Shown piece by piece: positions 28,131-45,266 of a stretch of 64,000 nucleotides of DNA. Under the pieces are notes generated by a model that searched no databases, was not told where the DNA came from, and was given only the letters and a program-made list of their open reading frames with translations. The DNA is from Spirochaetota bacterium (GTDB lineage: Bacteria > Spirochaetota > UBA4802 > UBA5550), in the NCBI GenBank assembly GCA_041737965.1, contig JBGSQT010000021.1, positions 2,959 to 66,958 on the forward strand, read 5' to 3'. Position 1 is the first letter of the stretch, and every line of letters starts with the position of its first letter. Made by a program: the position numbers and the translations under genes.

Positions 28131-29012
28131 CTCATTCAAACAGCTGTTATTGCTTAAAATCGTGTTTTGCTTCAAATATGGATTTTATTCTTTACATCCA
28201 ATAAATTTTAACTACATAATTACCCTCTTCCAGATCAATCATTGGCTTATGTTGCGATTTGTTTTCATGTGTGTGTAGATTTGGTCAATCCTGGTCATTC
28301 GTATTTTATTACATATTGATTATAAATATATTATTATAACAATAATAAATAAAAAAAGATGTAATGACATAGAAGCTAAAAATTAATCGGCACCATGCAT
28401 TTAGAACGCATTTCTGTATATTATTAAGAGACGCTGTTATGAATTATTCTTGAAAAGAAGGTGATTTTATACTTCGTATAAGTCACGGTTGTTGACCGGG
28501 ATCCAATATACTTAGAGGAATGCTATTTATTTGGTACGAATACAAGTGACAGCCGACCAAATCTAAATTCGTGGTCATAAAATGCCACAGACATTCCTAA
28601 AACCATCTCATGTCCCCTTTCCTTTGACCTGTGTGATTGAGGATAGGTTATTGCCACTTTCTGTTTCGTTATCCGAGTAGGGACACCCAATTGCTCGACG
28701 AGGCAGGAGGTCGTAAGGAGGGCCGACGCAGTTTATGTTGTTGTAAGGCTATCATAACAACCTATATACTTAAACGAAAAAATGGCTTTTTAAAAGCGTA
28801 TAAGGAGGTATATTTTTTATTGACAAACCTTCAAAAATCAAATTAAGGGGAATCAGTCAATGTTTGATACTGACACAATCATTGATATTTATTAGAATAT
28901 ATGCGATTCTAATAAAAAGCATATAATAATGATCGAATCAAATAATTTATCTCGTTGTAAAATGATAGTATATATAGGTAATTAAATAAAAAAGAATTAA
29001 AGTAAGGATTAT

Positions 29013-29525
29013 ATGAAAAATTATGTAATAATTATTGCGATCGGTTTCCTTCTATGTGTGATATCTACATCTTATGTTTTTTCACTTGAAGAAGGTCAGG
29101 AGGTGCCGACTTTCCTTTTTCGCTGTGTCGATAATACCGTTATAAACCTAAAAACGCAATGCTCTAAAGGACCGATGGTTATCTCCTTTTTTGACCACAA
29201 GTGTCCCCCCTGCATGAAAGAAATTCCTTTTATGCAAAAAATTAAGAATGAGAACCCAACACTAAAGGTAATACTCGTGGCTGGGCAAATGACGAACGCA
29301 TATCAGGCAGTTGAATTTATCAAGCAAATTGAGGATGTTTCCAGTATTACAATAAATCTTCCGGTAGTGATCGACAAGCATGGAGGCATTGAGAATGATT
29401 TCGGTGTTACAAGTCATCCGGATGTCTTCATTATTAAAAATGGTTGTCATGTATTCAAACGTTATAAAGGGTATAATGAGTCGAATTCAACTGAAATCGT
29501 GAGCGCTGTTGAATTATTGAAGTAG
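29013..29525 (+). CDS. secreted TlpA/AhpC-TSA-like thioredoxin-fold thiol:disulfide oxidoreductase
   Basis: 170-aa ORF. Signal anchor MKNYVIIIAIGFLLCVISTSYVFS. Active-site FFDHKCPPCMKEIPFM (CxxC). Confidence 0.8.
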   Translation: MKNYVIIIAIGFLLCVISTSYVFSLEEGQEVPTFLFRCVDNTVINLKTQCSKGPMVISFFDHKCPPCMKEIPFMQKIKNENPTLKVILVAGQMTNAYQAVEFIKQIEDVSSITINLPVVIDKHGGIENDFGVTSHPDVFIIKNGCHVFKRYKGYNESNSTEIVSAVELLK

Positions 29526-29634
29526 TTAGTCTCTGGAGTTTTTTCTGATTATATGTTAGAGTTAAATCATAAAATAATTTATTGTATCGCCTTATATAGT
29601 AATATGAAAATGGTTAGGTTATTAGGGGTATCAA

Positions 29635-31809
29635 ATGAAAAAGGCTGTACTAGGTTTACTCATTATAATTATCATTATTTCCGCTTGCTCTTGCAATGGG
29701 CAGCATGTCGGTAGCCAGGATATGAGTAGACCACTCATATATGTAAAAAATTTAATCCAACTTAAAGATGTCTCTGCACCAGAGGCTCAAACTATTTCAG
29801 AGGAAATCGAGAAGGCGGTAATCGCATCGGGTCGCTATGAGGTAATGAGTCAATCACAAGTGAAGGAGCTGTTCAATAATGCCGAAAAGAAGCAGATATT
29901 CGGGTGTAATGCCGAAGAATGTTTACGGCAGATAATGAAAACCACCATGACCGATTATCTTCTCTATGGTACTATTAGCAAAGATGAAGGTGAGTATGCG
30001 ATTTCGGTGAATTTGATGCGTCAGAAAGAGGGGGAAACAGCCGTGGTGGATAAGACAGCCACGAAGTTTACACGATCACTCTCGACCAAATCTCTTACAA
30101 ATATCACCAAGTTATTAATTAGTACTCTTCATGGAGAGAAAGTAATAGATGATAGCTCTAAAATACTGAAGGTGCCTAAATTGGAAGGTGATTTAGTTTA
30201 TTTTATTGTAAATTCAACACCACCAGGGGGTGATTTATATATCAGTGATATAAAGAAGGGATCCACACCTCGACGTTTACTTTTGCCAGCGCTCACTTAC
30301 AAGGGAAAGATTGAGAAATTTGGATACCAAACCGCTGAATTTGATATGAACCTCCAAGATAAACATGACTATAACATTTATCTCAAGAAGGAGGTATATA
30401 CTCTCAGTATAAAGGCCGATACTGGTATGACGAATGAGATTGATATATTTGAGGGTGATTCAATTCTTGGGAAAGTCCATAAAACGGGAATTTTATTAAT
30501 AATTGAGTCAGGTGAGCACCTCCTAACATTAAAAAGTAAGGATTATGAGGAAAAGCATATCGTTGTAAACATTTCGAAATCGACTTCACTTACAGTAAAG
30601 CTCAATAAAATACCTCTTGTTATGAAGAAGGCTACTATTGATGACCTTTCAATAGTAGGAAGTAAGAAACCCTTAATTTACATAAAAAACCTTGAATTGA
30701 CAAAAGAAATATCGGCAGTGGAGGCACAGGCTGTTTCAAGCGAAATCGAGAAGGCTGTAATCGCATCGGGTCGCTATGAGGTAATGAGTCAATCTCAAGT
30801 GAAGGAGCTGTTCAATAATGCTGAAAAGAAGCAGATATTCGGGTGTAATGCCGAAGAGTGTTTACGGCAAATCATGAAAACTACCATGACTGATTATCTT
30901 ATTGTTGGGAAAATTATTAATAATGAGGGTTTATATTCCATCTCAGTAAATCTAATGCGAATGACAGAGGACGAAGTCCCGATGGTGGTGAATAATGTAG
31001 TACGGACAACAGATTCGCTTTCTACAAAATCACTTATGCTCCTTGCCAAGGAGCTGATTGAGGTTTTGCATGGAGAGAAGAAGGAGACAAAGCATGGGAC
31101 AGAAAAGGAAATTGGTGGTATGAATTTTATATATATTAAGGGAGGAACGTTTTTAATGGGATCTCCTAAGGATTGGGATCTAGGCACAGAACGCCCCCAG
31201 CACCAGGTAACCTTGAGCGGTTTTTGGATGGGGAAATATGAGGTGACTCAGAAACAATATGAAGATATCATGGAAAAGAATCCAAGCTTTTTCAACGTAT
31301 TGCTCAAGGGAAATCATCCGGTGGAAACAGTAAGTTGGGATGATGCCACCACTTTCTGTGAAAAGTTCAGTGCTAAACATGGTATAAAATCGCGACTACC
31401 CTATGAGGCTGAGTGGGAATATGCATGCCGAGCCGGGAGTACAACGGAATATTACTGGGGATCAAACATTAAGGATGATTATCTATGGCACGGTTTCAAT
31501 TCCAAAGGAAAAACCCACTCGGTTGGAGGCAAGCTTCCTAATTCCTGGGGATTGTATGATATGAACGGCAATGTAGCTGAATGGTGTATGGACTGGTACG
31601 ATCAAGATTATTATAAGGTGAGTCCAACTATTAATCCAAAGGGCCCTTCATCAGGGGTATACCGTGTTGTGCGGGGTGGGTCTTGGGAAAATAATCTCAC
31701 CATAGGTGTAATCGATTTCATATTCCGCTCGTCGTATCGAAGTCACAAATACCCGGAATACAAGGATAATAAAAGCGGGTTTAGACTCGTAATTACACCG
31801 GGTGATTAA
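29635..31809 (+). CDS. lipoprotein: 2x LpoB/CsgG-like N-domain + PEGA-like domain + C-terminal FGE/SUMF1-like domain lacking catalytic Cys
   Basis: 724-aa ORF. Lipobox IIISAC. Duplicated ~130-aa module (res ~32-160 and ~345-475). STPPGGDLYISDIKKGSTP PEGA-like segment. FGE-sulfatase fold motifs GGTFLMGS, HQVTLSGFWMGKYEVTQKQY, HPVETVSWDDA, LPYEAEWEYACRAG, WGLYDMNGNVAEW, RVVRGGSW, GFRLV. Confidence 0.85.
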   Translation: MKKAVLGLLIIIIIISACSCNGQHVGSQDMSRPLIYVKNLIQLKDVSAPEAQTISEEIEKAVIASGRYEVMSQSQVKELFNNAEKKQIFGCNAEECLRQIMKTTMTDYLLYGTISKDEGEYAISVNLMRQKEGETAVVDKTATKFTRSLSTKSLTNITKLLISTLHGEKVIDDSSKILKVPKLEGDLVYFIVNSTPPGGDLYISDIKKGSTPRRLLLPALTYKGKIEKFGYQTAEFDMNLQDKHDYNIYLKKEVYTLSIKADTGMTNEIDIFEGDSILGKVHKTGILLIIESGEHLLTLKSKDYEEKHIVVNISKSTSLTVKLNKIPLVMKKATIDDLSIVGSKKPLIYIKNLELTKEISAVEAQAVSSEIEKAVIASGRYEVMSQSQVKELFNNAEKKQIFGCNAEECLRQIMKTTMTDYLIVGKIINNEGLYSISVNLMRMTEDEVPMVVNNVVRTTDSLSTKSLMLLAKELIEVLHGEKKETKHGTEKEIGGMNFIYIKGGTFLMGSPKDWDLGTERPQHQVTLSGFWMGKYEVTQKQYEDIMEKNPSFFNVLLKGNHPVETVSWDDATTFCEKFSAKHGIKSRLPYEAEWEYACRAGSTTEYYWGSNIKDDYLWHGFNSKGKTHSVGGKLPNSWGLYDMNGNVAEWCMDWYDQDYYKVSPTINPKGPSSGVYRVVRGGSWENNLTIGVIDFIFRSSYRSHKYPEYKDNKSGFRLVITPGD
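29803..29961 (+). repeat. intragenic direct repeat copy A (pairs with 30742-30900)
   Basis: Hand alignment: 151/159 identical to 30742-30900. All 8 differences are synonymous. Offset 939 bp. Confidence 0.9.
30742..30900 (+). repeat. intragenic direct repeat copy B
   Basis: See 29803-29961. Both encode EIEKAVIASGRYEVMSQSQVKELFNNAEKKQIFGCNAEECLRQIMKTTMTDYL. Confidence 0.9.
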
Positions 31810-31939
31810 TGTTGTTTTATGATTTAATTGCTGGATTCCTTATTCACTGAGAATATACACAAGAAAACCGCGATGATCCATCTGCTACGGAGTGGAACTC
31901 TATCGACAGAAAATGCATGGATAACCAAAGGAGTCAATT

Positions 31940-33421
31940 ATGAATAGTAGCTCTTTATTAGATTTTTTCTTACTATCGTTTTTAATACTGTTTATGAGTT
32001 GTACTTCAAGTTTATCTCGTGAGGAGATAGGTGTTGACGTAAACGAGAAACCACTTATCTATGTAAAAAATCTAATCTCTACCAAAGGGGTGAGTCCAGA
32101 AGAAACGAATATCATTTCCAGTGAGATAGAAAAAGCGGTGATTTCTTGCGGCCGCTACGAGGTTATGAGTCAATCTCAGGTGAATGAGCTCTTTAAAGCC
32201 GCAGAGCAGAAACAGCTCTTAGGTTGTAACGCAGAAGAGTGCCTCCGGAAGATTATGAAATCCACCATGACCGATTACCTGCTCTACGGCTCCATCAGTA
32301 AAGACGAGGGGGAGTATGCAATTTCAGTGAATCTAATCCGTCAGAAAGAGGGAGAAACCTTTGTGGTGGAGAAGACAGCCACGAAGTTTTCGCGCTCGCT
32401 CTCATCCAAATATTTAACGAGCATTGCACAAGAAATCATTAAGGATCTTCGTGGCGATAAGAACGATATAAGTATGATAACATCTGATGATGATTCAGAC
32501 GTCCTTATTGAAGTCAATGTCAAATCAACGCCACCTGGTGCCAAACTTTATATAAACGAAGTATTGAAAGGAGAAACTCCACTAATAATCCGAATGCCAG
32601 CATTTAAATACCAAGGGAAATTAGCTTATACTGGATACATCTTAAACAAGTTTGATATATCTATCCCACAAAAGATTGATTATTACATCAGCCTTGAAAA
32701 GGTATCCAACCAATTACTAAAGACTAAAAAAATTGGAGATATGGATTTTATTTATATTCCTGGTGGATTATTTGTTATGGGTTCAAAAATAAAAACAGGA
32801 AAATGGGTTATTGATGATGTTGTTCCTGAACATGAAGTAACACTTGATAGTTTTTGGATGGGGAAATATGAGGTGACTCAGAAACAATATGAAGATATCA
32901 TGGGAACAAATCCAAGTCATTTCCAGGGAGATCCAAAACTACCGGTTGAGAGGGTAAGTTGGAATAATGCAATGGCTTTTTGTAAAAAATTCAGCGCCAA
33001 GCATGGTATTGAAGTGCGCCTGCCCTATGAGGCCGAGTGGGAATATGCCTGCCGCGCCGGGAGCACAACGGAATATTACTGGGGAGATACAATCGATGGA
33101 GATTACCTTTGGTGGGATGACAATTCAGGATACAGAACTCATCCAGTTGGTAATAAACTCCCGAATGCATGGGGGCTTTACGATATCATTGGTAATGTAG
33201 CGGAATGGTGTATGGACTGGTATGATAAAGACTATTATAAGGTGAGTCCAAATATTAATCCCAAGGGACCTACAGCGGGGAAATCCCGTGTTGTGCGTGA
33301 CGTTTTGCGGTACAATGACGTTGGTAAATCATGCTTCCGCTCGTGGGGCCGTTACTTTGACCACCCGAATTACGCGAGCTATTGGTACGGGTTTCGCTTG
33401 GTGGTTTCACCCGGAGAATAA
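31940..33421 (+). CDS. lipoprotein paralogue: 1x LpoB/CsgG-like N-domain + PEGA-like + divergent FGE/SUMF1-like domain
   Basis: 493-aa ORF. Lipobox LFMSC. Same architecture as 29635..31809 with one N-module. Shares a 53-bp identical stretch with it (31221-31273 = 32851-32903). The RGGSW motif is replaced by RDVLRYND. Confidence 0.85.
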   Translation: MNSSSLLDFFLLSFLILFMSCTSSLSREEIGVDVNEKPLIYVKNLISTKGVSPEETNIISSEIEKAVISCGRYEVMSQSQVNELFKAAEQKQLLGCNAEECLRKIMKSTMTDYLLYGSISKDEGEYAISVNLIRQKEGETFVVEKTATKFSRSLSSKYLTSIAQEIIKDLRGDKNDISMITSDDDSDVLIEVNVKSTPPGAKLYINEVLKGETPLIIRMPAFKYQGKLAYTGYILNKFDISIPQKIDYYISLEKVSNQLLKTKKIGDMDFIYIPGGLFVMGSKIKTGKWVIDDVVPEHEVTLDSFWMGKYEVTQKQYEDIMGTNPSHFQGDPKLPVERVSWNNAMAFCKKFSAKHGIEVRLPYEAEWEYACRAGSTTEYYWGDTIDGDYLWWDDNSGYRTHPVGNKLPNAWGLYDIIGNVAEWCMDWYDKDYYKVSPNINPKGPTAGKSRVVRDVLRYNDVGKSCFRSWGRYFDHPNYASYWYGFRLVVSPGE

Positions 33422-34088: not shown

Positions 34089-36482
34089 ATGAACAAGAAA
34101 GCCCTCAGTGAACGCGATATCTGCACCAAGTTTATCATACCTGCCATAAAAGACGCTGGCTGGAACATCGACACACAGTTAAGGGAAGAAGTCTCCTTTA
34201 CCGACGGGCGCATCTATGTGAAGGGGAATAAAACCGCGCGCGGTGAAAAGAAGCGCGCCGATATCATCCTGTACTATAAGCCGAACATCCCGGTTGCGGT
34301 CATTGAAGCGAAGGATAACAATCACTCTGTCGGCGCCGGGATGCAGCAGGCGCTGCACTATGCGGAAATGATGGATATCCCTGTTGTCTATAGCTCCAAC
34401 GGTGATGGCTTTCTGGAGCACGATAAAACGAATGCTACCGGTAAGGTCGAGCAGGAGCTTGGCCTGGACCGTTTCCCCTCGCCGGAGGAGCTCTGGAAGC
34501 GTTATAAGCGGTATAAAGGGATAGAAACACCGGATCAGGAACACATCGCCTCCCACGATTACTTTTTCGATGGAAGCGGCAGAAAGCCCCGGTACTACCA
34601 GCAGAACGCCATCAACAGGGCCGTGGAGGCCATTGCAAAGCAGCAGAAGCGGATTCTCCTGGTGATGGCCACCGGCACGGGAAAGACCTATGTGGCTTTT
34701 CAGATCATCTATCGGCTCTGGAAGAGCGGGAGAGCGAAGCGGATACTGTTTCTTGCCGACAGGAACGCCCTTATCAATCAGACCAAACGGGGCGACTTCA
34801 AGCACTTCAAAGACCGCATGACGGTGATCCGCAAGAAGCAGATAGACAAGGCCTACGAGATATACCTGGCGCTGTACCAGGGGCTGACGGAGTACGATGA
34901 GGACAGGGACGCGTACCGGGAGTTCAGTCCCGATTTCTTTGATCTCATCGTCGTGGACGAGTGCCACCGGGGAAGCGCGGCCGCGGACAGTGCCTGGCGG
35001 GAGATACTGCAATACTTTACCAGCGCTACACAGATCGGTCTTACGGCGACTCCCAGGGAGACGAAAGACATATCGAACATCGAATACTTTGGTGAACCAA
35101 TTTACACCTATTCGTTGAAACAGGGCATCGAGGATGGATTCCTTGCACCCTATAAGGTTATCCGTGTGGGGGTGAATGTCGATCTTGAAGGCTGGCGGCC
35201 CGAAATCGGCAAAAAGGATAAAGAAGGGAATACCATCGAAGACCGTGTGTATAATGCCAAAGATTACGACAGGAACCTCGTCATTGAAGAGAGAACGCTT
35301 TTAGTGGCCCGCAAGGTGACGGAGTTCCTTAAAAAGACCGACCGGTTCGATAAAACCATTATCTTCTGCGTGGATATCGAACATGCCGAGAGAATGCGGC
35401 AGGCCCTGGCCAATGAGAACAGCGACCTGGTACAGATCAATTACAAGTATATCATGCGTATCACCGGCGACGAAGAAGAGGGGAAACGGGAGCTCGATAA
35501 CTTTATCAACCCTGAGGAGCGGTATCCGGTTATCGCCACCACCTCGAAGCTCATGACCACCGGCGTTGACGCGCAGACGTGCAAGCTCATCGTGCTGGAC
35601 AGCGTGATCAATTCCATGACCGAGTTCAAGCAGATCATCGGGCGCGGTACCCGCATCAACGAGGAATACGGGAAAAGTTATTTCACCATCATGGACTTCC
35701 GCAACGTGACGGACCTCTTTGCTGATCCTGCCTTCGACGGCGATCCTGTCATGGTGAAGCAGGTGAGGGGAGATGCCCCGCTTACCGATGAGGATATCAA
35801 TCCCGAAATGGATGGTGATATCATCGACAGTGAAACCGGCAAGCCCATTGATTTCACCGAGTACCAAGAGAGCAGCGGGAAGGCCGAGGTGATCGCCGAT
35901 GGTGACGGCCCCAGGGCCCAGGGCAAGATATATGTCGCCGGTATCGACGTATCAATCCTGAATGAACGGGTACAGCACCTGGACGGGAATGGCAAGCTCA
36001 TTACCGAAAGCCTCAGGGACTACACGAAGCGCACCATACTAAAGGAATTCCGGTCCCTCAAGGATTTCCTCACTAAATGGAATACGGCAGATAAGAAAAA
36101 GGCGATCATCGATGAACTGGAGGAGCACGGGGTCATCCATGAAAACCTCAGGGAAGAGGTGCAGAAAGACCTGGATATCTTCGACCTCATCTGCCATGTG
36201 GCGTGGGACATGCCTGCCCTGACGAGACGAGAACGGGCTGATAACGTGAAGAAGAGGAACTACTTCACGAAATACGGCGACAAGGCCCGCCTGGTCATCC
36301 AGGCGCTGCTGGACAAGTATGCCGACGAAGGCATCGAGAATATCGAGGACCTGTCGGTGCTGAAGATTGAACCATTTACCGCCATGGGTACCCCGGCGGA
36401 AATAGTTTCGATCTTTGGTGGCAAAGAGGCGTATTTGAAAGCGATCAAAGAACTTGAACAAGAGATCTATAGAGCCGCCTGA
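34089..36482 (+). CDS. hsdR: Type I restriction enzyme R subunit (EcoAI/EcoEI, type IB-like)
   Basis: 797-aa ORF. N-terminal nuclease ..RADIILYYKPNIPVAVIEAKD.. (D...ExK). SF2 motor LLVMATGTGKT (Walker A) and VVDECHRGS (DEAH box). C-terminal EcoEI_R_C-like tail. Confidence 0.92.
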   Translation: MNKKALSERDICTKFIIPAIKDAGWNIDTQLREEVSFTDGRIYVKGNKTARGEKKRADIILYYKPNIPVAVIEAKDNNHSVGAGMQQALHYAEMMDIPVVYSSNGDGFLEHDKTNATGKVEQELGLDRFPSPEELWKRYKRYKGIETPDQEHIASHDYFFDGSGRKPRYYQQNAINRAVEAIAKQQKRILLVMATGTGKTYVAFQIIYRLWKSGRAKRILFLADRNALINQTKRGDFKHFKDRMTVIRKKQIDKAYEIYLALYQGLTEYDEDRDAYREFSPDFFDLIVVDECHRGSAAADSAWREILQYFTSATQIGLTATPRETKDISNIEYFGEPIYTYSLKQGIEDGFLAPYKVIRVGVNVDLEGWRPEIGKKDKEGNTIEDRVYNAKDYDRNLVIEERTLLVARKVTEFLKKTDRFDKTIIFCVDIEHAERMRQALANENSDLVQINYKYIMRITGDEEEGKRELDNFINPEERYPVIATTSKLMTTGVDAQTCKLIVLDSVINSMTEFKQIIGRGTRINEEYGKSYFTIMDFRNVTDLFADPAFDGDPVMVKQVRGDAPLTDEDINPEMDGDIIDSETGKPIDFTEYQESSGKAEVIADGDGPRAQGKIYVAGIDVSILNERVQHLDGNGKLITESLRDYTKRTILKEFRSLKDFLTKWNTADKKKAIIDELEEHGVIHENLREEVQKDLDIFDLICHVAWDMPALTRRERADNVKKRNYFTKYGDKARLVIQALLDKYADEGIENIEDLSVLKIEPFTAMGTPAEIVSIFGGKEAYLKAIKELEQEIYRAA

Positions 36483-36877
36483 TGAAACCACGAATGGACA
36501 CGAATACACACGAATTGATTTACAAGGAAGAAGTTTATGAAATTGTCAATGCGGCGATGGAGGTTTTGAACACACTCGGTCATGGTCTGTTTGAAAAGGT
36601 GTATGAGAATGCATTGGTTGTCGAAATAAAAAGACGTGGCATATCTATCGATCAACAGAAGCGTTTTGATGTAATCTATAAAGACGAGCTCGTCGGAGAA
36701 TATATGCCTGATCTGATAGTGTACGATCGCATCATACTCGAAATAAAAACAATTGACACGATTACCAATCATGAGAGGGGGCAGGTCATTAACTATCTCC
36801 GGTTGACCGGCTTGAAACTTGGATTAATACTTAATTTTAAAAAGGCAAAGCTTGAATGGGAGCGAATTGTATTATAA
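36482..36877 (+). CDS. GxxExxY family protein (PD-(D/E)xK-fold) inserted between hsdR and hsdM
   Basis: 131-aa ORF. GHGLFEKVYENAL (GxxExxY motif), ..PDLIVYDRIILEIKT.. (D...ExK). ATG overlaps the hsdR stop (TGATG at 36480-36484). The N-terminus MKPRMDTNTHE is encoded by CACGAAT repeats. Confidence 0.88.
   Translation: MKPRMDTNTHELIYKEEVYEIVNAAMEVLNTLGHGLFEKVYENALVVEIKRRGISIDQQKRFDVIYKDELVGEYMPDLIVYDRIILEIKTIDTITNHERGQVINYLRLTGLKLGLILNFKKAKLEWERIVL
36489..36515. repeat. CACGAAT x3 (10-bp period), left arm of GxxExxY cassette
   Basis: cacgaat at 36489, 36499 and 36509. Confidence 0.85.
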
Positions 36878-36883
36878 AACCAT

Positions 36884-36910
36884 ATTCGTGCTCATTCGTG
36901 TTAATTAGTG
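36884..36910. repeat. ATTCGTG x2(+1 degenerate), inverted right arm of GxxExxY cassette
   Basis: attcgtg at 36884 and 36894, attagtg at 36904. Reverse complement of the left-arm motif with the same 10-bp period. Lies just after the GxxExxY stop. Confidence 0.8.
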
Positions 36911-36922
36911 GTTATTGCTTAT

Positions 36923-38356
36923 ATGAAAAACATCGGTAGTATCATCAAGTCATTACAGAACATCATGCGCAAGGACCCGGGCGTATCCGGCGACGCCCAG
37001 CGCATCGAGCAACTGGGCTGGCTCATCTCCCTGAAGATACTGGACGACAAGGACAAGGAGTTGGAGCTCATCAACGATTCCTACGCGTCGCCGATCCCGG
37101 AGGAACTGCGGTGGAGGAACTGGGCGGCGAACGACGAGGGGATGACCGGCGACGAGCTGAAGAACTTCATCGACGGCAAACTATTCCCGAAGCTCAAGAA
37201 CCTCGACGTGAGCACCGGCAACAAGCGGGCCCTCATCATCCGGGAGATCTTCGAGGGGACCAACAACTACATGAAAAACGGCACCGTCATCCGCCAGGTG
37301 CTGAACCAGCTCAACCAGATCGACTTCAATATCTCCGAAGACCGGCACATGTTCGGCGACATGTATGAAACCATCCTCCGGGACCTGCAGAGCGCCGGAA
37401 ATTACGGTGAATTCTACACCCCCCGGGCGATCACCGACATCATGACCGAGCTCGTCAATCCCCGGCTGGGCGAGAAGGTGCTGGACCCCGCCTGCGGCAC
37501 CGGGGGCTTCCTCACCAGCGCCATCGAGAACATCCGACGGCAGGACGTGAAGGGCGTCGACGACCTGAAAACGCTGGAAGCCACCATCCACGGCATGGAA
37601 TTCAAGCCCCTGCCGTTCATGCTGGCGGTGACCAACCTCATCCTCCACGACATCGAAGTGCCCAACATCGATTATACCGACAGCCTGAACCGGGAATACA
37701 CCGGCATCGGCCAGAAGGACCGGGTGGACGTGATCCTGGCCAACCCGCCCTTCGGCGCGTCCGTAACCGACGGCGCTGAGACCAACTTTCCCCAGAACTA
37801 CCGCACCACGGAAAGTGCGGACCTGTTCCTGGTGCTCATGATCCGCTACCTGAAAGAGGGTGGCCGCGCGGCGATCGTGCTGCCCGACGGGTCGCTCACC
37901 GGCGACGGGGTGAAGCAGCGCATACGCCAGCATTTCCTGGAGAGCTGTAACCTCCATACGATCGTGCGTCTGCCCAATTCGGTGTTCCAGCCCTACGCGA
38001 GCGTGGCGACGAATCTGCTTTTCTTCATCAAGGGCGAGCCGACTAAAGAGATCTGGTACTGGGAGCACAAACTTCCCGAAGGAGTTAAGGCATATTCCAA
38101 GACGAAGCCGATACAGAAAAGCGAGTTTGAGAACCTGAAAAAGTGGTGGAAGAAGCGGAAAGAGAGCGAGCTGGCCTGGAAGGTATCGATAAAGACAATT
38201 GCTGAGAATGGATATACTCTTGATATAAAAAATCCCCATACGCCGGAGGCGGAGCATACATACTCAAGTAAAGAATTATTGTCTATGCTTCATGATTCTT
38301 TCAGGAAGAGTGATGAGTTGTTGGGTAAGTTGAAGAAGGAACTGACTGAGAGATAA
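36923..38356 (+). CDS. hsdM: Type I R-M N6-adenine DNA methyltransferase subunit
   Basis: ORF 36908..38356 (GTG). ATG at 36923 preferred. SAM motif VLDPACGTGGFL, catalytic ILANPPFGAS, HsdM N-terminal helical domain. Confidence 0.92.
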   Translation: MKNIGSIIKSLQNIMRKDPGVSGDAQRIEQLGWLISLKILDDKDKELELINDSYASPIPEELRWRNWAANDEGMTGDELKNFIDGKLFPKLKNLDVSTGNKRALIIREIFEGTNNYMKNGTVIRQVLNQLNQIDFNISEDRHMFGDMYETILRDLQSAGNYGEFYTPRAITDIMTELVNPRLGEKVLDPACGTGGFLTSAIENIRRQDVKGVDDLKTLEATIHGMEFKPLPFMLAVTNLILHDIEVPNIDYTDSLNREYTGIGQKDRVDVILANPPFGASVTDGAETNFPQNYRTTESADLFLVLMIRYLKEGGRAAIVLPDGSLTGDGVKQRIRQHFLESCNLHTIVRLPNSVFQPYASVATNLLFFIKGEPTKEIWYWEHKLPEGVKAYSKTKPIQKSEFENLKKWWKKRKESELAWKVSIKTIAENGYTLDIKNPHTPEAEHTYSSKELLSMLHDSFRKSDELLGKLKKELTER

Positions 38357-38478
38357 TGGTTCTCGCAAAGAACGCGAAGGTCGCAAAGATAAAGCAATAT
38401 CCTTTCTTCGCGTACTTTGCTGTCTTTGCGTGAAATATAAAATGTCACATAGACTACGCAGAGAGCGCAGAGGAGAAC

Positions 38479-38505
38479 CACGAATGGACACAAATGGACA
38501 CGAAT
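38479..38505. repeat. solo third copy of the CACGAAT-type arm in the hsdM-hsdS spacer
   Basis: aaccacgaatggacacaaatggacacgaat, compared with aaccacgaatggacacgaatacacacgaat at 36486-36515. Same orientation as the left arm. Confidence 0.8.
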
Positions 38506-38516
38506 AAGGATTTATA

Positions 38517-39881
38517 ATGAGTCATTTTGATATTGTTAAGCTTTCTGAAGTAATTAAACAACGCAAAGGGAGCATTATTATTGATAATGATAAGGAATAT
38601 AAACTATGCCGAGTTCAATTGCACCGACGAGGTGTTGTCCTACGCGGGAAACAATTTGGATATCAGATAAAAACAAAAAAACAGCAGATATGTCATGCTG
38701 GTGATTTAATTGTCGCTGAGATGGATGCCAAATTTGGAGGATATGGTTTTATTCCCTCAGAATTAGAAGGAGCAATTGTAAGTAGTCATTATTATTTATA
38801 TAGTCTTGATAAATCAAAAATAACTCAAGAGTACTTACAGACTTTGATTAAAACTGATTATATTCAAAATCAAATTGAAGCAAAAGGGAGTACTAATTAT
38901 TCTTCAATAAGGGCATGGGAATTTCTGGATTATAAAATTCCATTACCAAGCTTAGAAAGACAACATGAAATTTCTTTGAATTATATTAGACATGATAATT
39001 TTAAAGAATCATTTATTCGGGAAAACGATTATCAATCCTCCTACCTCTCCCTTCTCCGACAAGCCATCCTGCAGGAAGCCATCGAAGGAAAATTAACCGA
39101 GGCCTGGCGTAAGAAAAATCCTGTCAAACCGGGCGACCCGGACTACGACGCGGCGTCGCTTCTTGAGAAGATCAAGGCTGAAAAGCAGAAGCTCATTGCG
39201 GAAGGGAACCCTTCGACCGGGCTCAGGGCGAGGATTAAGAAAGAGAAGCCCCTTGTCCCGATTAAGCCCGAGGAGGTGCCGTTCCAGGTGCCGGAGGGGT
39301 GGGTGTGGTGCAGGTTGGGGGAGGTGTGTTTTAAAATAACTGATGGTTTTCACAATACTCCTAAAAAATTATTAAAAGGAATTCCTTACATAGCTGCGAC
39401 ACATGTGAAATCAGATAAAATTGATTGGGAACAATGTCATTATGTATCTGAAAAGGATCATAAAGAACTATTTACGAAAACGTATCCACAAAAAGGAGAA
39501 ATATTATTAGTTAACATTGGAGCTGGATGTGGTACACCTGCAATTATTGATGTTGACTTTGAGTTTAGTTTTAAAAATACAGCAATTTTAAAATTTAACC
39601 AATCACATATTTCTAATAAATATATATTCAATTATTTTATTCTTAAACGTAATGAAATTTATTCAGAGCTTACAAAGGGAGGTTTACAACCTTTTTTAAG
39701 TTTAAGTATACTAAATAATATTATAATCCCGCTTCCCCCTCTTGATGAACAGTATGCTGTTGTTGAGCGAGTTGAGCGGCTTGTCGCAATGGTGAATGAG
39801 CTGGAAATGCAGGTGGCCGAGCGGAAGGAGCGGGCGGAGGAGTTGATGCAGGCAGTGTTAAGGGAGGCGTTTGAGGCATGA
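38517..39881 (+). CDS. hsdS: Type I R-M specificity subunit (two TRDs)
   Basis: 454-aa ORF. Two AT-rich variable TRDs separated by a GC-rich central conserved helix (SYLSLLRQAILQEAIEGKLTEAWRKKNP...) and a C-terminal conserved helix (LDEQYAVVERVERLVAMVNELEMQVAERKERAEELMQAVLREAF). Confidence 0.88.
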   Translation: MSHFDIVKLSEVIKQRKGSIIIDNDKEYKLCRVQLHRRGVVLRGKQFGYQIKTKKQQICHAGDLIVAEMDAKFGGYGFIPSELEGAIVSSHYYLYSLDKSKITQEYLQTLIKTDYIQNQIEAKGSTNYSSIRAWEFLDYKIPLPSLERQHEISLNYIRHDNFKESFIRENDYQSSYLSLLRQAILQEAIEGKLTEAWRKKNPVKPGDPDYDAASLLEKIKAEKQKLIAEGNPSTGLRARIKKEKPLVPIKPEEVPFQVPEGWVWCRLGEVCFKITDGFHNTPKKLLKGIPYIAATHVKSDKIDWEQCHYVSEKDHKELFTKTYPQKGEILLVNIGAGCGTPAIIDVDFEFSFKNTAILKFNQSHISNKYIFNYFILKRNEIYSELTKGGLQPFLSLSILNNIIIPLPPLDEQYAVVERVERLVAMVNELEMQVAERKERAEELMQAVLREAFEA

Positions 39882-39968: not shown

Positions 39969-40859
39969 ATGAGAAAAATATTAAAATTATCAGATACAAT
40001 TCACTCCATTCCGCTTGGTGATTTTCCAATTACCGGCAATCTTAATAAAGATGTGGAAGCTTATGTTAAGTATAAAAATATACCAAGTCATATTCAAAAT
40101 TTAAACGACAATATTTTTGTGACACTCATTTTTCGGTTAGGATTTGGACAAAAAATGACTGTTCATACACTTACTGAAGGTGTAATAGATAAAGTAAAAA
40201 ATACAAAAATTGAAAATGTACCTAATGAAGTTCCAGATTTAATGAAACATTCGTTTCTATTTGAAGCAAAAAATGATAATGTTCTTTTTGATAATATTGT
40301 TTCAATTGGCGGCTTTACATATAATAATGAAATATGCTTATTAATTGGTAAAAAAGATAGTTATTATATCCAACACCATGATGCGTCCTTTGATGGTAGA
40401 AAAATTGAAGACCTTAACTTGGTTTACAATACAAATATTAATTACCCTGAGTCATTTATTCAAATGAAGGAAAGGAAAGATACTTTTGCTTTTGTAACAA
40501 TTCTTTCATTAATGCTTGAGGCTGACCGAACACCTTTGATGGTTGATAGTAAAGCAGAGAAGAAAAATTACAAAACTAAAAGTATAATAAAGAATATTAC
40601 TGAAACAGGTTGGATTAATAAACGTATCTATATAGATAAAAATATTCAATATAAAAATAATTCTAAAGGCTATAGCGAATTAAATAAAAATGGTAAACTA
40701 TTAAAAGATGTTATTGTTCATGGATTTTTAAGGAAGCAGCATTATGGTAAAGATAATGCTCAAATAAAATGGATATATATAGATAGTTTTGATTCAACAA
40801 GATGGGCAAGTAATAAGGATATAAATGTTACTGTGGATATATATGATAAAAAAGAATGA
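39969..40859 (+). CDS. hypothetical protein, no recognisable domain (island module gene 1)
   Basis: 296-aa ORF, very AT-rich, Lys/Asn/Ile-rich but non-repetitive. Co-directional with hsdS, 87 nt downstream. Confidence 0.6.
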   Translation: MRKILKLSDTIHSIPLGDFPITGNLNKDVEAYVKYKNIPSHIQNLNDNIFVTLIFRLGFGQKMTVHTLTEGVIDKVKNTKIENVPNEVPDLMKHSFLFEAKNDNVLFDNIVSIGGFTYNNEICLLIGKKDSYYIQHHDASFDGRKIEDLNLVYNTNINYPESFIQMKERKDTFAFVTILSLMLEADRTPLMVDSKAEKKNYKTKSIIKNITETGWINKRIYIDKNIQYKNNSKGYSELNKNGKLLKDVIVHGFLRKQHYGKDNAQIKWIYIDSFDSTRWASNKDINVTVDIYDKKE

Positions 40860-40928
40860 AAACAAATTTATTGTATAAGCGCGCGTTGCTCGGCCATCCT
40901 GGTCTCGCAAAAGATAAGAAGAGTACTT

Positions 40929-41651
40929 TTGGAAAGTATTAAAAAGCGTAAAATGAATCGAGAGGAAAAACTCGCTGATGATTATTTAAAAAATATTTAT
41001 AACAATGTACTTTTTGAACCTGATGGTAATATCCCACCTGATTTTTTAATAAATAATGACATAGCTGTTGAAGTTCGTAGATTAAATCAGCACAAAATAA
41101 TTTCAGGTAAATACCAACCATTAGATAATAAATCGCTATCTATATTTCATTCTATTGAAAAGGCCATAGAAAGTATAAAATCAGAAAATAATAATTGTTA
41201 TATCGTTAGTATTGATTTTGAACAACCAATCGATATTAGATTTATTAAAAAAGAAATTATTAATAGACTCAAACAATTCTTAGGAAATCCAGTACCATTA
41301 CCATGTAAAATTGAAATTAATGATAGTTTTAGTTTTGAAATTTATCCTGCTGAACCAAAATATTCTTCCACATTTATTTTAGGTGCTATGAATGATCTTG
41401 ATAATGGTGGATTTATATTATCGCTCCTGATAAAAAATATAAATATTTGTATCGACGAAAAGACGGAAAAGATTCAACGTTATAGGAATAAATATAGAAT
41501 ATGGTGGTTAATACTTATTGATACCATTGGATATGGTTCTTATAAATCAGAAATTAATTCAATAAAATCGAAATTAGTAATTGATCCCGTTTGGTCTAAA
41601 ATAATAATATTGAATACTTTGAATGGTGAATTTATAGCAGAAATAACATGA
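40929..41651 (+). CDS. hypothetical protein with PD-(D/E)xK-like N-terminal signature (island module gene 2)
   Basis: 240-aa ORF (TTG start in track; ATG at 40953 also possible). EEKLADDYLKNIYNNVLFEPDGNIPPDFLINNDIAVEVRRL resembles E...PD...(D/E)x(K/R) nuclease cores. Assignment is pattern-based only. Confidence 0.55.
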   Translation: MESIKKRKMNREEKLADDYLKNIYNNVLFEPDGNIPPDFLINNDIAVEVRRLNQHKIISGKYQPLDNKSLSIFHSIEKAIESIKSENNNCYIVSIDFEQPIDIRFIKKEIINRLKQFLGNPVPLPCKIEINDSFSFEIYPAEPKYSSTFILGAMNDLDNGGFILSLLIKNINICIDEKTEKIQRYRNKYRIWWLILIDTIGYGSYKSEINSIKSKLVIDPVWSKIIILNTLNGEFIAEIT

Positions 41652-41796
41652 CACCATCAAGCTCAACATCCATGTTTCAATTGTTTTCTGTATCATAAAT
41701 ATAGACAAGTGCTTACTGCATATAACTCAGTGTATGGTGCTTGCGCTCCTCGGGCAGTGGTAAAGTGACATTGATGAATATTTTAGGAGAATATTT

Positions 41797-42053
41797 ATGC
41801 AATCATTACATATTTTACAAGGTGGATATAAAATGATGATAAAGCATTATTTGTAAAACAAAGTAAGATGAAATCACTTACTTGGACTGTCCCCAAGAAA
41901 GCCATCATGGGAGATGATGTAGTTATTTTTATTAATGCATTTGGTTTTTATGCGACCGGATACGTTAAATCCTTGCCAGTAAAGGATAAGAATTGGAGTA
42001 ATAGGTATTCAGCTCTAATAGATAATATATCATTAATTGTACAATTATCGTAA
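41797..42053 (+). pseudogene. frameshifted small gene relic
   Basis: ATG 41797 with TAGGAGA RBS reads MQSLHILQGGYK, then stops at 41854. The -1 frame continues NDDKALFVKQSKMKSLTWTVPKKAIMGDDVVIFINAFGFYATGYVKSL... to 42053. The frames join at the A-run 41830-41833 (one base missing). Confidence 0.5.
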
Positions 42054-42129
42054 TGACCTGACAATCATTTGAAAAACAGAAGAAGTGGGTGCATACAGTG
42101 GAGAGGTTGAAGCAGAGGTGGGTGGTACT

Positions 42130-44223
42130 ATGACAACCCTTTTTGGCAAGCTGGATAAGATTAAATATTTGCAGATTGTGCATAATGACAAACCAGCAGA
42201 TTTAAGTTTCACAGAGATATTCGACACGAATTCATTTGATGAAATTTCAATAACCACATTTGTATCATCTCCCGGTTTTTTCTTTGAAAACACAAAAAAA
42301 TTTAAAGATGTGACACTCGTCCTTGGTATTGAAGATAATGAATCGATCAGCAGGTTTTATTTTGATCCGGTTGTACAGAATGAGTTTTATAAAGACGCGG
42401 ACAAAGAAACGATTTTAAAAATAAAAAATGGAAGTTTGAAAATTTACTTTGCCCCTTTAAATACATCTATTCATTCTAAATTATACATTCTGAAAAATTC
42501 AACAACGGGCAATGCGAGATTGATTTTGGGTTCCGCTAATTTCACCGAAAACGCCTTTTCCGGTAAAAGACAGTTTGAAGAAATTATAGTATTTGATAAT
42601 GATTATAATCCGGCAATCGTTAAGCTTTATGAGGAACGGTTTTCATATATTCTTAGCCAGTGTGTTGACTTTGTACCAGAAAGATTAAAAAAGAAGATCA
42701 AAGATGGAATCACCATTAATAACATCAATCTTAGTGAAGACGATTTTATTGAAGCTCTAAAGGATAATGTAAAAAGAATAACTCAGACAATTACAATAAC
42801 TGAAGATACAGCTCGGGAGTTTGATATTCTTAAAACAAGTCTTCACAATGACGAAGCAAATGTAAAAAGTAAACTTGAGAGCATTAATCGTACCAGGACA
42901 ATATTTGAGAATATCAGTAAAAACAAGGACGGTATAGTCGCAATTATTACTCCCTCTGAAATTACACGGAAAAAGGAAACGATTATTTCTAAGACCTTTA
43001 TTAAAGAAGATAAGAAAATATTTACCGACAACAGAATCAAAGCATATTACTCTAAAAGCGCGGATAGCATTTTTAGGGAAGACGTATCGAGCGGCTGCAG
43101 TATACATTATGCAGCGAAAGCCGATCTTAATGTATTAAAGGAAAAATTTATTCTATTAAACAGGTTTATTGATGCCTATGACGAGTTTACAATTAATGAT
43201 GTAAAAGAGACAAAGCTCCGTATTTTTGAAGCGATTCTATACTCATTTATTTCGCCGTATATCTGGAAGATAAGAGACGAATATGCCCGTATAGATAATA
43301 AAAACGAGGCAAGAGCATCTGTTCCAATTTTTTTATTAATTGCGGGACAATCTCAATCGGGGAAAACTCATCTAATCAAATTCATTAGCAAGATCATGGG
43401 AAATTATGGAAATTATTATCATTTCACAAAGCAGGGTCGGCTATTTTCGCAGGATCATATAAATCCTCAGATTATTGATAATTTTCTTTATGAAGAGATC
43501 CTTACTCCTGTATTTGTAGATGAAATCTCCAAGGAATACTTTAGCTCGCAAAGCTCCGTTACGAGCAATTATATGGGTGAGGATTTTGTAAAAAAGATTA
43601 CTAATACCAAAGAGGGAGTATTTCCCGGAGTCATAGCAACAAGCAATACCGATTTTTCAGCGAATCCCCAGGTGATGAGAAGAATTTACTATATACAACT
43701 CAATAATCCCTTTGATCCGGATAAAAAGACTGAGACTTCAAACTACTTTAATGAAATATATGAAGCATTCGGTACGGAGCTTTTTCAAGATTTTTTATTT
43801 AGACTTGAACAAAAGTTCAAAGAGGAAATGATAATCAATCAAGAAGATTTTTTATGTGTTGGCAGATCAATCTTTCTTGAATACTTTACGGAAATCGGTA
43901 TTCCTGTTCCTTCATGGTTTTCTCCTGGAAGAATCGATGATTATTATTTAAGGGGAAAACAATTATGGCAACGACTCTATAGAATGAAGAAAAAAGGTTT
44001 TAATGAAGATAAATCAAAAAATGAAATTACTATTGATGATGATATTGTCTTTGGCAGTAAGCTTACCGTAAGCAGGGATAAACGTGAATGCTTACAGTAT
44101 CTTCATGCCGGAATAATTATTGAGGACAAGGGACTCGTTGTTTTGAACAGGAAAAAGTTTTTGGGGTTTATCAGCGAAGAAAATTCCGTAATATCATTTA
44201 TAAAACGGTTAAAAAAATCATAG
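42130..44223 (+). CDS. PLD-family (single HKD) nuclease domain fused to SF3/D5-like P-loop NTPase (island module gene 3)
   Basis: ORF 42085..44223; ATG 42130 preferred (AGAGGTG upstream). N-terminal IHSKLYILKNSTTGNARLILGSANFTENAF (HxK...GSxN). C-terminal Walker A LLIAGQSQSGKTHL, Walker B TPVFVDEISK, motif C GVIATSNTDF. Confidence 0.75.
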   Translation: MTTLFGKLDKIKYLQIVHNDKPADLSFTEIFDTNSFDEISITTFVSSPGFFFENTKKFKDVTLVLGIEDNESISRFYFDPVVQNEFYKDADKETILKIKNGSLKIYFAPLNTSIHSKLYILKNSTTGNARLILGSANFTENAFSGKRQFEEIIVFDNDYNPAIVKLYEERFSYILSQCVDFVPERLKKKIKDGITINNINLSEDDFIEALKDNVKRITQTITITEDTAREFDILKTSLHNDEANVKSKLESINRTRTIFENISKNKDGIVAIITPSEITRKKETIISKTFIKEDKKIFTDNRIKAYYSKSADSIFREDVSSGCSIHYAAKADLNVLKEKFILLNRFIDAYDEFTINDVKETKLRIFEAILYSFISPYIWKIRDEYARIDNKNEARASVPIFLLIAGQSQSGKTHLIKFISKIMGNYGNYYHFTKQGRLFSQDHINPQIIDNFLYEEILTPVFVDEISKEYFSSQSSVTSNYMGEDFVKKITNTKEGVFPGVIATSNTDFSANPQVMRRIYYIQLNNPFDPDKKTETSNYFNEIYEAFGTELFQDFLFRLEQKFKEEMIINQEDFLCVGRSIFLEYFTEIGIPVPSWFSPGRIDDYYLRGKQLWQRLYRMKKKGFNEDKSKNEITIDDDIVFGSKLTVSRDKRECLQYLHAGIIIEDKGLVVLNRKKFLGFISEENSVISFIKRLKKS

Positions 44224-45020: not shown

Positions 45021-45093
45021 GCCAACGTGGCTCAGTCGGTAGAGCAGCTCACTCGTAATGAGCAGGTCGCCGGTTCGATTCCGGCCGTTGGCT
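45021..45093 (+). tRNA. tRNA-Thr (anticodon CGU)
   Basis: Hand-folded cloverleaf: acceptor GCCAACG/CGTTGGC, D arm GCTC-AGTCGGTA-GAGC, anticodon stem GCTCA/TGAGC with loop CTCGTAA, T arm GCCGG-TTCGATT-CCGGC. CCA not encoded. Confidence 0.9.
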
Positions 45094-45266
45094 CACACGC
45101 ACAGGGGCGTCCCGGAAGGGGCGCCCCTCTGTTATCCCGCCGCTGCGACCTCCGGGGCATACCCAATTTATATTGACACCACTGAATCAATAGACGATAA
45201 TTTGACGGATGATTATCGCGAACCGGCATTGTTGACGGTTCGACCCATGCCAATGCGGAGGCGGTC

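Follow-up and report, generated by a model that had tools for sequence, protein, structure and literature searches.

What is the function of two exported proteins that carry a formylglycine-generating enzyme (FGE)-type domain without the catalytic cysteine pair, and why are they encoded behind a thiol-disulfide oxidoreductase? The question is raised by three genes, g1 (29013..29525), g2 (29635..31809) and g3 (31940..33421), all on the + strand of a 64,000-nucleotide stretch of contig JBGSQT010000021.1 (the window). An earlier interpretation made from the sequence alone (the sequence-only reading) had described them as three co-directional genes of an envelope cassette, and the open reading frames (ORFs) were found exactly there. 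The first gene encodes a TlpA/ResA-like thiol-disulfide oxidoreductase of 170 residues with a CPPC motif, exported or membrane-anchored. The second encodes a predicted lipoprotein of 724 residues built of a lipobox, an N-terminal module (N-module A), a PEGA domain, a second β-domain, a second N-module (B) and an FGE/C-type-lectin domain, and the third a 493-residue exported protein with a lipobox-like signal, one N-module, a PEGA domain and an FGE/C-type-lectin domain. The interpretation that we favour, with some reserve, is that of a laterally acquired operon for a dedicated periplasmic redoxin and two exported binding proteins of the TvpA class, to which variable proteins of diversity-generating retroelements (DGRs) belong.

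The C-terminal domains have the full FGE-sulfatase fold proposed for both proteins by the sequence-only reading, which is a C-type-lectin fold: residues 498-719 of g2 (31126..31791, +) and 269-488 of g3 (32744..33403, +) match Pfam PF03781 with E-values of 7.8e-52 and 5.1e-46, respectively. In the PDB, the best sequence match is TvpA (2Y3C; 9.4e-32 for g2 and 2.8e-30 for g3), which outranks all catalytic FGEs, PvdO, PorK and EgtB. The AlphaFold model of g3 (pLDDT 86.6) has the same protein as its top Foldseek match (E 2.5e-19, 30% identity, root mean squared deviation (RMSD) 2.8 Å), again ahead of every catalytic FGE, PvdO, PorK and EgtB. Homology of the two C-terminal domains to DGR variable proteins of the TvpA class is, in our judgement, very probable. 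TvpA-type proteins are built on an FGE-type C-type-lectin scaffold, the C-terminal variable region (VR) of which, starting from RGGSW, is rewritten by the DGR; in a survey of 372 DGRs, FGE-type targets formed the largest class (19%), and TvpA itself is inactive as an FGE (PMC5758913).

The C-terminal strings quoted in the sequence-only reading are exact, and its description of the domains as Cys-less holds in full for g2, which in a HMMER alignment has no cysteine at the positions of human FGE C336 and C341. It holds in part for g3, where the C336 position is occupied by an aspartate and a single cysteine (KSCFRS) aligns with C341. No sulfatase gene was found among the annotated neighbours of the cassette in the window or of the homologous cassettes at loci L049, L051, L052, L054, L055 and L056-58. 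Since the cysteine pair is missing, no sulfatase gene adjoins the cassette or nine homologous loci and no structure matches better than that of TvpA, the FGE domains of g2 and g3 are very probably non-catalytic and serve in binding, in agreement with the earlier proposal that they are ligand binders rather than makers of formylglycine. Within these domains, a stretch of 54 nt encoding FWMGKYEVTQKQYEDIM is 100% identical between g2 (31220-31273) and g3 (32850-32903), in surrounding DNA that is ~75% identical; either gene conversion or a very strong constraint could account for it.

The seemingly degenerate segment that follows RGGSW does not represent a decayed active site; it corresponds instead to the variable region of a TvpA-type scaffold. 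The VR-equivalent of g2, GGSWENNLTIGVIDFIFRSSYRSHKYPEYKDNKS (31675..31776, +), has no catalytic cysteine and no clear DGR footprint, and that of g3, DVLRYNDVGKSCFRSWGRYFDHPNYASYWY (33299..33388, +), has a footprint of the adenine-mutagenesis type. Identity between g2 and g3 is 70.6% over the FGE core, 26.7% over the VR-equivalent and 70% over the ten residues after GFR, so the divergence of the two proteins is sharply localised to the VR. The full RGGSW...RSA.R....P.......GFR scaffold is kept in g2, and all of it except GGSW in g3.

The nearest full-length relative of these proteins, P0014, is encoded at locus L001 (Spirochaetota metagenome-assembled genome (MAG), DAOMJL010000141.1). It has the N-module, PEGA and FGE architecture of g2 and g3, with 46% identity along residues 35-489. 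On the 3' side of its gene lie an ORF for an Avd-like four-helix protein, a template repeat (TR) and then a reverse transcriptase (RT) of 345 residues with YVDD and GNLTSQ motifs. The TR (3268-3391), which encodes RVLRGGSWNNNNDNNRSANRNNNNPDNRNNNNGFRVV, and the VR (2635-2758) align over 124 nt with 27 mismatches, and all 27 fall on TR adenines. By these sequence features P0014 is an active, bona fide DGR target. When the C-termini are aligned, the template Asn positions of the L001 TR are exactly those at which g2, g3 and related proteins vary, and the scaffold R..RSA.R....P.......GFR is kept across the C-termini of the family. A fragment of an RT was also found at L042 (10001-10884; Chloroflexota MAG JBFMDB010000007.1), directly after an FGE-domain homologue; it is 51% identical to the L001 RT over the first 82 residues and probably belongs to another FGE-type DGR.

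The composition of the g3 VR resembles the outcome of adenine-specific mutagenesis. Adenine makes up 20% of it vs 33% of the rest of the gene (p 0.01), and C-ending (NNC) codons 43% vs 18% (p 0.003). At the 16 template-Asn positions, g3 has 14 pyrimidine-ending (NNY) codons, 11 of them NNC (p 1e-5); the positive control, L001, has NNY codons at 16 of 16. The bias extends to synonymous sites, as the C:T ratio in two-fold, Y-ending codon boxes is 11:4 in the g3 VR and 33:85 outside it (p 3e-4). Such a synonymous shift from T to C cannot be put down to amino-acid selection, and the g3 tip is probably of DGR origin. The other paralogue, g2, was tried as the template for g3 and rejected, as many of the mismatches fall at non-adenine positions.

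Several results weigh against this reading. No TR for the VR of g2 or g3 was found on either strand of the window, which covers 64 kb of an 85-kb contig, by an adenine-tolerant scan (windows of 60, 90 and 120 nt, with at most 12% non-adenine mismatches), and blastn self-matches scored for adenine bias gave none there; the same methods do recover the L001 pair, the only one that the self-matches returned. The RT and Avd of L001, used as tblastn queries, had no match in the window; over the window and 60 loci, they returned only L001 and the fragment in L042. No RVT domain was found by Pfam in the island that holds the cassette or in the low-GC ORFs of the window, and a hairpin 3' of the g3 VR is no better than in shuffled sequence (z -0.15). 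Among 48 genome loci with FGE-domain homologues, only two (L001 and the L042 fragment) have an RT at a distance of 10 kb or less, so most proteins of the FGE fold do not adjoin a DGR. The VR of g2 has a normal composition, with no adenine depletion and a weak NNY bias (p 0.02-0.08). As for g3, the NNY test uses an alignment that contains indels, the missing GGSW is a segment that is normally not DGR-mutable, and the C-rich patch could have been brought in from a GC-richer homologue by recombination. The VRs of g2 and g3 are of unequal length (by 4 residues) and neither has the length of the L001 TR, so that no single template is shared by the three. With neither RT nor TR in the window, g2 and g3 cannot be classed as DGR targets in the strict sense; they are very probably homologues of DGR variable proteins, with the mutational footprint in g3, and would be either orphan or remote targets.

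The N-terminal half of the question concerns the N-module, of which there are three copies with mutual identities of 59-73%: residues 30-169 of g2 (copy A, TolB-N/LpoB-like; 29722..30141, +; profile match and fold), residues 343-482 of g2 (copy B; 30661..31080, +; 70% identical to copy A) and residues 35-174 of g3 (32042..32461, +; profile and fold). Each copy has a C-x4-C pair, at 29905-29922 (Cys91 and Cys96), 30844-30861 (Cys404 and Cys409) and 32225-32242 (Cys96 and Cys101), respectively. The sequence-only reading had recognised an LpoB/CsgG-style module, twice in g2 and once in g3. By sequence the match is below threshold, with 20.9 bits against a gathering score of 22.3 for Pfam LpoB (PF13036) in g2, and 33 and 21.9 bits for g2 and g3 against a cut-off of 110.55 for NCBIfam LpoB (TIGR02722); the fold was confirmed by the AlphaFold model of the module (pLDDT 87), which in Foldseek matches TolB-N (E 3.5e-7), GNA1162, LpoB and PelC. 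The model superposes on LpoB 4Q6L with TM-scores of 0.68/0.70 and an RMSD of 2.9 Å, on TolB with a TMq of ~0.62-0.67 and on PelC with ~0.5. As modelled, the N-module is a member of the LpoB/TolB-N/PelC fold class and not an LpoB orthologue.

An exhaustive HMMER profile search of 1.84 billion representatives returned 10 relatives of the N-module at E<1e-30, 65 at E<1e-10 and 1,641 at E<1e-3, and distant members of the family pass the Pfam thresholds for LpoB and DUF3280. Two other approaches gave nothing: a word-indexed homology search with the N-module alone found no match, and a metagenome scan with its alignment yielded 600 pattern matches, of which none was confirmed. Literature searches on the LpoB/DUF3280 module family found nothing relevant. 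In 30 diverse N-modules, the only invariant columns are the two cysteines of the C-x4-C pair and one glycine. To our knowledge, neither this invariant pair nor a partner redoxin is a feature of LpoB, TolB or PelC. What follows the module differs between relatives: nothing (P0127), PEGA repeats only (P0128 and P0129), an FGE domain without PEGA (P0130), other β-repeat domains (P0132 and P0133) or an Lcl_C/DUF1566 domain in the place of the FGE domain (P0153; L059, 128-1129). This last domain is of the lectin class to which LdtA, a DGR target of Legionella, belongs, so both DGR-type lectin scaffolds occur on the N-module.

The PEGA-like domain attributed to both lipoproteins is borne out by Pfam matches (PF08308) at residues 191-251 of g2 (30205..30387, +; 1.8e-8) and about 191-251 of g3 (32510..32692, +; 6.5e-6, with β-strands in the model). 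Their export signals were assessed by pattern inspection only. The g2 signal is canonical, with a KK n-region and the lipobox IISAC (Cys18, 29686..29688, +), and g2 is a putative lipoprotein, as the sequence-only reading had it; in g3 the lipobox-like LFMSC (Cys21, 32000-32002, +) follows an n-region with no K or R among the first seven residues. Among 16 family members, the lipobox pattern is present in only g2, g3 and the distant P0136, and the others have plain signal peptides. Export is predicted to be conserved in the family, and lipidation is not.

The oxidoreductase encoded by g1 matches the Pfam families AhpC-TSA (9.5e-12) and Redoxin (2.2e-9), and also Thioredoxin; its CPPC motif and hydrophobic N-terminus were identified by inspection. 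It was rejected as an orthologue of ResA, StoA or DsbE/CcmG, all NCBIfam scores being far under the equivalog cut-offs (58.8 bits against 170, 44.8 against 210 and 34.1 against 123 for ResA, StoA and DsbE, respectively). Together with its relatives it forms a redoxin subfamily of its own, linked to N-module genes, with a consensus of roughly SFFxHxC[PLV][PN]C..EIP..Q. A g1 homologue adjoins or lies near an N-module gene in ten of ten informative loci, namely the window, L001, L049, L051, L052, L053 (truncated), L054, L055, L056-58 and L060 (truncated), in hosts of 36-61% GC; L059, too short to judge, was left out of this count. The linkage holds at L056-58 although the N-module there is only 23% identical. 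The dedicated exported CxxC oxidoreductase of the sequence-only reading is, in short, a conserved partner. As the redoxin also accompanies N-module proteins devoid of an FGE domain, the linkage follows the C-x4-C N-module and not the FGE domain.

This linkage suggests a biochemical role. The redoxin would govern whether the C-x4-C cysteines are oxidised or reduced while the protein is exported or assembled, and by analogy with ResA and TlpA it might act as a reductant. Such action on the pair is proposed from gene linkage and is, in our estimate, about as likely as not, which counts against the overall interpretation. No description of a redoxin paired with a C-x4-C TolB-N/LpoB-like module was found in the DGR literature consulted or in full-text literature searches; the two form a strictly conserved, previously undescribed pair that provides a biochemical hypothesis for a family of unassigned function. 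One such pair, with five PEGA domains and no FGE domain, is found at L052 (Logan SRR28170473_32815, 6540-9283) on a contig of 47% GC; it comes from the sequencing run that also yielded the Logan contig of the window and presumably belongs to another organism, so relatives of the cassette may co-occur in one sample. In two unrelated loci, a toxin-antitoxin pair of the HepT/MNT type lies beside the redoxin and N-module cassette (L049, 12308-13029; L054, 10404-10926); at L049 it occupies the interval between target gene and redoxin that is held by Avd, TR and RT in L001.

A promoter-like site, CTGACA-17-TAGAAT (28870..28898, +), was found by consensus scan ~115 nt upstream of g1; its 10/12 matches are weak evidence, and it may drive a g1-g2-g3 operon. 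Given this site, and as no terminator-like site was found on the + strand between the three genes, a single operon is plausible. The GC content of the cassette is 39.5%, within a surrounding AT-rich block of 34-41% and flanks of ~55-61%, and the cassette takes up the opening 5 kb of a mosaic, AT-rich region that ends at a tRNA-Thr gene (CGT anticodon, 45021-45094), the right edge of the island. Repeat and boundary searches at the left edge (~28.1 kb) found neither an integrase nor a tRNA-derived direct repeat. The best named relatives of a DUF6909 protein in the native flank (47613-49283) are from Ca. Fermentibacteria (~61% identity), and the host is therefore probably of this candidate phylum. 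The best full-length relatives of the cassette are from Spirochaetota; together with the GC content of the cassette, this contrast indicates, at the level of sequence, that g1-g2-g3 was acquired laterally.

Downstream of the cassette, the island contains a complete type I restriction-modification system, with hsdR at 34089-36482, hsdM at 36908-38356 and hsdS at 38517-39881. A 30-nt repeat (AACCACGAATGGACAC[G/A]AAT...) is found just 3' of hsdR (36486-36515) and just 5' of hsdS (38476-38505), and the sharp contrast in GC between hsdR/hsdM (45-61%) and hsdS (38-41%) marks the island as a mosaic. Two further ORFs (39969-40859 and 40929-41651) have no match in Pfam or PADLOC, and a 712-residue protein (42085-44223) has an N-terminal phospholipase D (PLD)-nuclease domain and a P-loop region resembling that of Zeta toxins, and it weakly matches ZacB in PADLOC; the ORFs at 39969-44223 may represent an uncharacterised defence gene set. 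In the left flank (~20-26.3 kb), a Lol-like ABC/FtsX set with a TP_0789-like protein was recognised via the Logan contig L050. Tandem repeats of 21 nt (ACCGTCAT[TC]CCCGCGAG[AG]CGC...) lie at 2726-2832, within an ORF of 592 residues on the - strand (1178-2956), and related copies are found at 4639-4682 and 12477-12520.

How else could the cassette be explained? Its binding proteins might be ordinary paralogous FGE-fold binders that were never linked to a DGR, the fast-evolving loop having diverged by point mutation, indels and positive selection. Such an origin would fit a window that has neither RT nor TR, the unequal lengths of the two VRs and the L001 TR, the normal base composition of the g2 VR and the scarcity of nearby RTs (2/48 FGE-homologue loci), and the homologues P0018 and P0130 are likewise without a DGR nearby. 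It does not account for the synonymous switch to C-ending codons in g3, which amino-acid selection leaves unexplained, or for an adenine depletion that is confined to 90 nt; moreover, P0014, the closest homologue over the full length, is the target of an active DGR, and the variable positions match template Asn codons. We consider such an origin rather unlikely. A sub-case of the orphan or remote reading is that g3, and perhaps g2, is still an active target of a DGR that lies in the same genome but beyond the window. In its favour are the NNC footprint, strong and unerased within an AT-rich gene, and the remote targets known from non-phage DGRs, at distances of more than 100 kb from the RT (PMC5758913). 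It would, however, require that the matching TR came along with a cassette that looks recently imported from another phylum; no hairpin lies 3' of the g3 VR, and the protein clusters of g2 and g3 have one member each, with no variants among 15 billion proteins. An independent assembly offers no variant information, as the Logan contig that carries g1 ends 322 nt past g1, at the start of g2. Continued activity on g3 is, on balance, unlikely.

There are two further alternatives. In one, g2 and g3 are catalytic or structural members of a characterised FGE-fold family: true formylglycine-generating enzymes, PorK/GldK lipoproteins of the type IX secretion system (T9SS) ring, PvdO-like enzymes or sulfoxide synthases of the EgtB/OvoA type. 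The Pfam FGE-sulfatase matches are significant, there are partial NCBIfam matches to GldK, EgtB and PvdO, and the host appears to belong to Ca. Fermentibacteria, a phylum of the FCB group, in which the T9SS is known. The scores are nonetheless far under the curated cut-offs, with 98 and 79 bits against 350 for GldK (TIGR03525), 63 and 59 against 500 for PvdO and 66 and 47 against 360 for EgtB, and those for SenA and OvoA are also far short of theirs. In Foldseek, PorK reaches a TM-score of ~0.4 with 17-18% identity, vs 30% identity for TvpA. The residues that define these families are missing: the catalytic cysteine pair is gone, and no DinB-type domain, which in EgtB carries the iron-binding His triad, was found. 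The neighbours of the cassette include no sulfatase, porLMN-like, por or gld gene. Membership of the catalytic FGE, PorK/GldK, PvdO or EgtB families was rejected, and the alternative as a whole is extremely improbable. In the other, the cassette is the envelope sensor of a defence system, the FGE fold sensing phage or foreign molecules and signalling to the type I restriction-modification system and the PLD nuclease. Its place in an AT-rich island with hsdRMS and the PLD/Zeta-like protein invites this view, and FGE-type sensors fused to NTPases are reported from conflict systems (PMC10907252). According to Pfam, however, g2 and g3 have no NTPase, kinase, effector or transmembrane signalling domain, and PADLOC gave no meaningful match for g1-g3; the GC content of the cassette (39%) also differs from that of hsdR/hsdM, suggesting a mosaic island. 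The homologous cassettes lie among housekeeping or miscellaneous genes (such as HSP20, a mechanosensitive channel, UbiD/UbiA and a major facilitator superfamily transporter). The link to a defence island drawn by the sequence-only reading was therefore dropped: the defence context is incidental, a role coupled to restriction-modification is unsupported, and the sensor hypothesis is very unlikely.

The orphan or remote reading leads to the following picture. Both g2 and g3, probably lipid-anchored, would present one or two C-x4-C modules, PEGA β-sandwich spacers and a distal, non-catalytic lectin domain of the TvpA class, of which the last 30-35 residues would form a hypervariable ligand-binding face. 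The tip of g3 would have been written by adenine-specific mutagenic retrohoming, either in the donor lineage before transfer or by a DGR elsewhere in the genome, and would now be frozen (an orphan) or a remote target. The older copy would be g2, its footprint having been erased by ordinary mutation, and the two paralogues may provide two binding specificities at the envelope. A bolder version, which we consider unlikely, is that the redoxin and the C-x4-C module constitute a widespread, undescribed two-gene display chassis at the envelope into which DGRs repeatedly plug, with g3 still being rewritten by a DGR outside the window. How the module is assembled or anchored, perhaps in disulfide-locked rings of the PelC type, would then be controlled by the redoxin, and the distal domains (PEGA only, FGE-type C-type lectin, DUF1566-type C-type lectin or other β-repeats) would be interchangeable. 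If this were true, a DGR target would have crossed phyla, from a Spirochaetota-like donor to Ca. Fermentibacteria, and stayed targetable.

The vague label of a Cys-less FGE-like sensor is replaced here by a testable identity, that of TvpA-class hypervariable binding proteins as orphan or remote DGR targets on a laterally transferred cassette. Even where the retroelement is missing, earlier DGR activity can be recognised from codons, by NNC enrichment and synonymous T-to-C changes, which helps to annotate the very many metagenomic proteins filed under 'formylglycine-generating enzyme family'. Targets of the TvpA class were already known as a kind; what is new is the conserved redox partner, previously undescribed.

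Compared with known systems, the cassette combines features that are otherwise found apart. The aerobic FGEs (human SUMF1 and those of S. coelicolor and T. curvata) share the overall fold at 24-29% identity. They differ in the Cu(I)-binding cysteine pair (human C336 and C341), which is absent from g2 and represented in g3 by the C341 equivalent only; g2 and g3 also have extra N-terminal modules and no sulfatase partner gene. The N-module model superposes on the α/β envelope domains formed by the C-terminal part of LpoB, the N-terminal part of TolB, GNA1162 and PelC, whereas identity to them is only 11-16%. With TlpA, ResA, CcmG (DsbE) and StoA, g1 has in common the thioredoxin fold, the CxxC motif, an N-terminal signal or anchor and genetic linkage to a specific cysteine-containing substrate, ResA being linked to apocytochrome c and TlpA to ScoI/CoxB. 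The presumed substrate of g1, in contrast, is a C-x4-C pair and not a haem- or copper-binding motif, and neither a cytochrome-maturation gene nor a CcdA/DsbD gene is adjacent to it. LdtA of Legionella pneumophila is likewise a lipoprotein that exposes, at the envelope, a hypervariable face of C-type-lectin fold in its C-terminal part (PMC5758913), but it is of the CLec2/DUF1566 class, with no sequence similarity to g2 or g3 found, and lies beside its DGR in a mobile element.

The closest parallels are the FGE-type DGR targets themselves. TvpA and the other targets of Treponema denticola DGRs are exported and often lipidated, they are the best match of g2 and g3 in both sequence and structure, and their variable segment directly follows RGGSW at the C-terminus. 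They differ in that the window has no RT, TR or accessory gene, in the long N-terminal extension of g2 and g3 (the TolB-N/LpoB-like C-x4-C module and PEGA, the latter without mention in the main text of a DGR survey from 2018; PMC5758913), in the dedicated redoxin gene of the cassette and in the loss of GGSW from g3. There is a precedent for targets without a retroelement, as T. denticola isolates that have no RT or TR keep FGE-type targets, regarded as relics that repeated gain and loss left behind (PMC4891356). The DGR at L001 differs from the cassette in having a complete retroelement and an adenine-only TR/VR pair, in the plain signal peptide of P0014, which has no lipobox, and in the position of the redoxin gene, 3.7 kb downstream of the target gene instead of directly upstream. 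It nevertheless unites the full g2/g3 architecture, a homologous redoxin on the same contig and the VR scaffold of g2 and g3.

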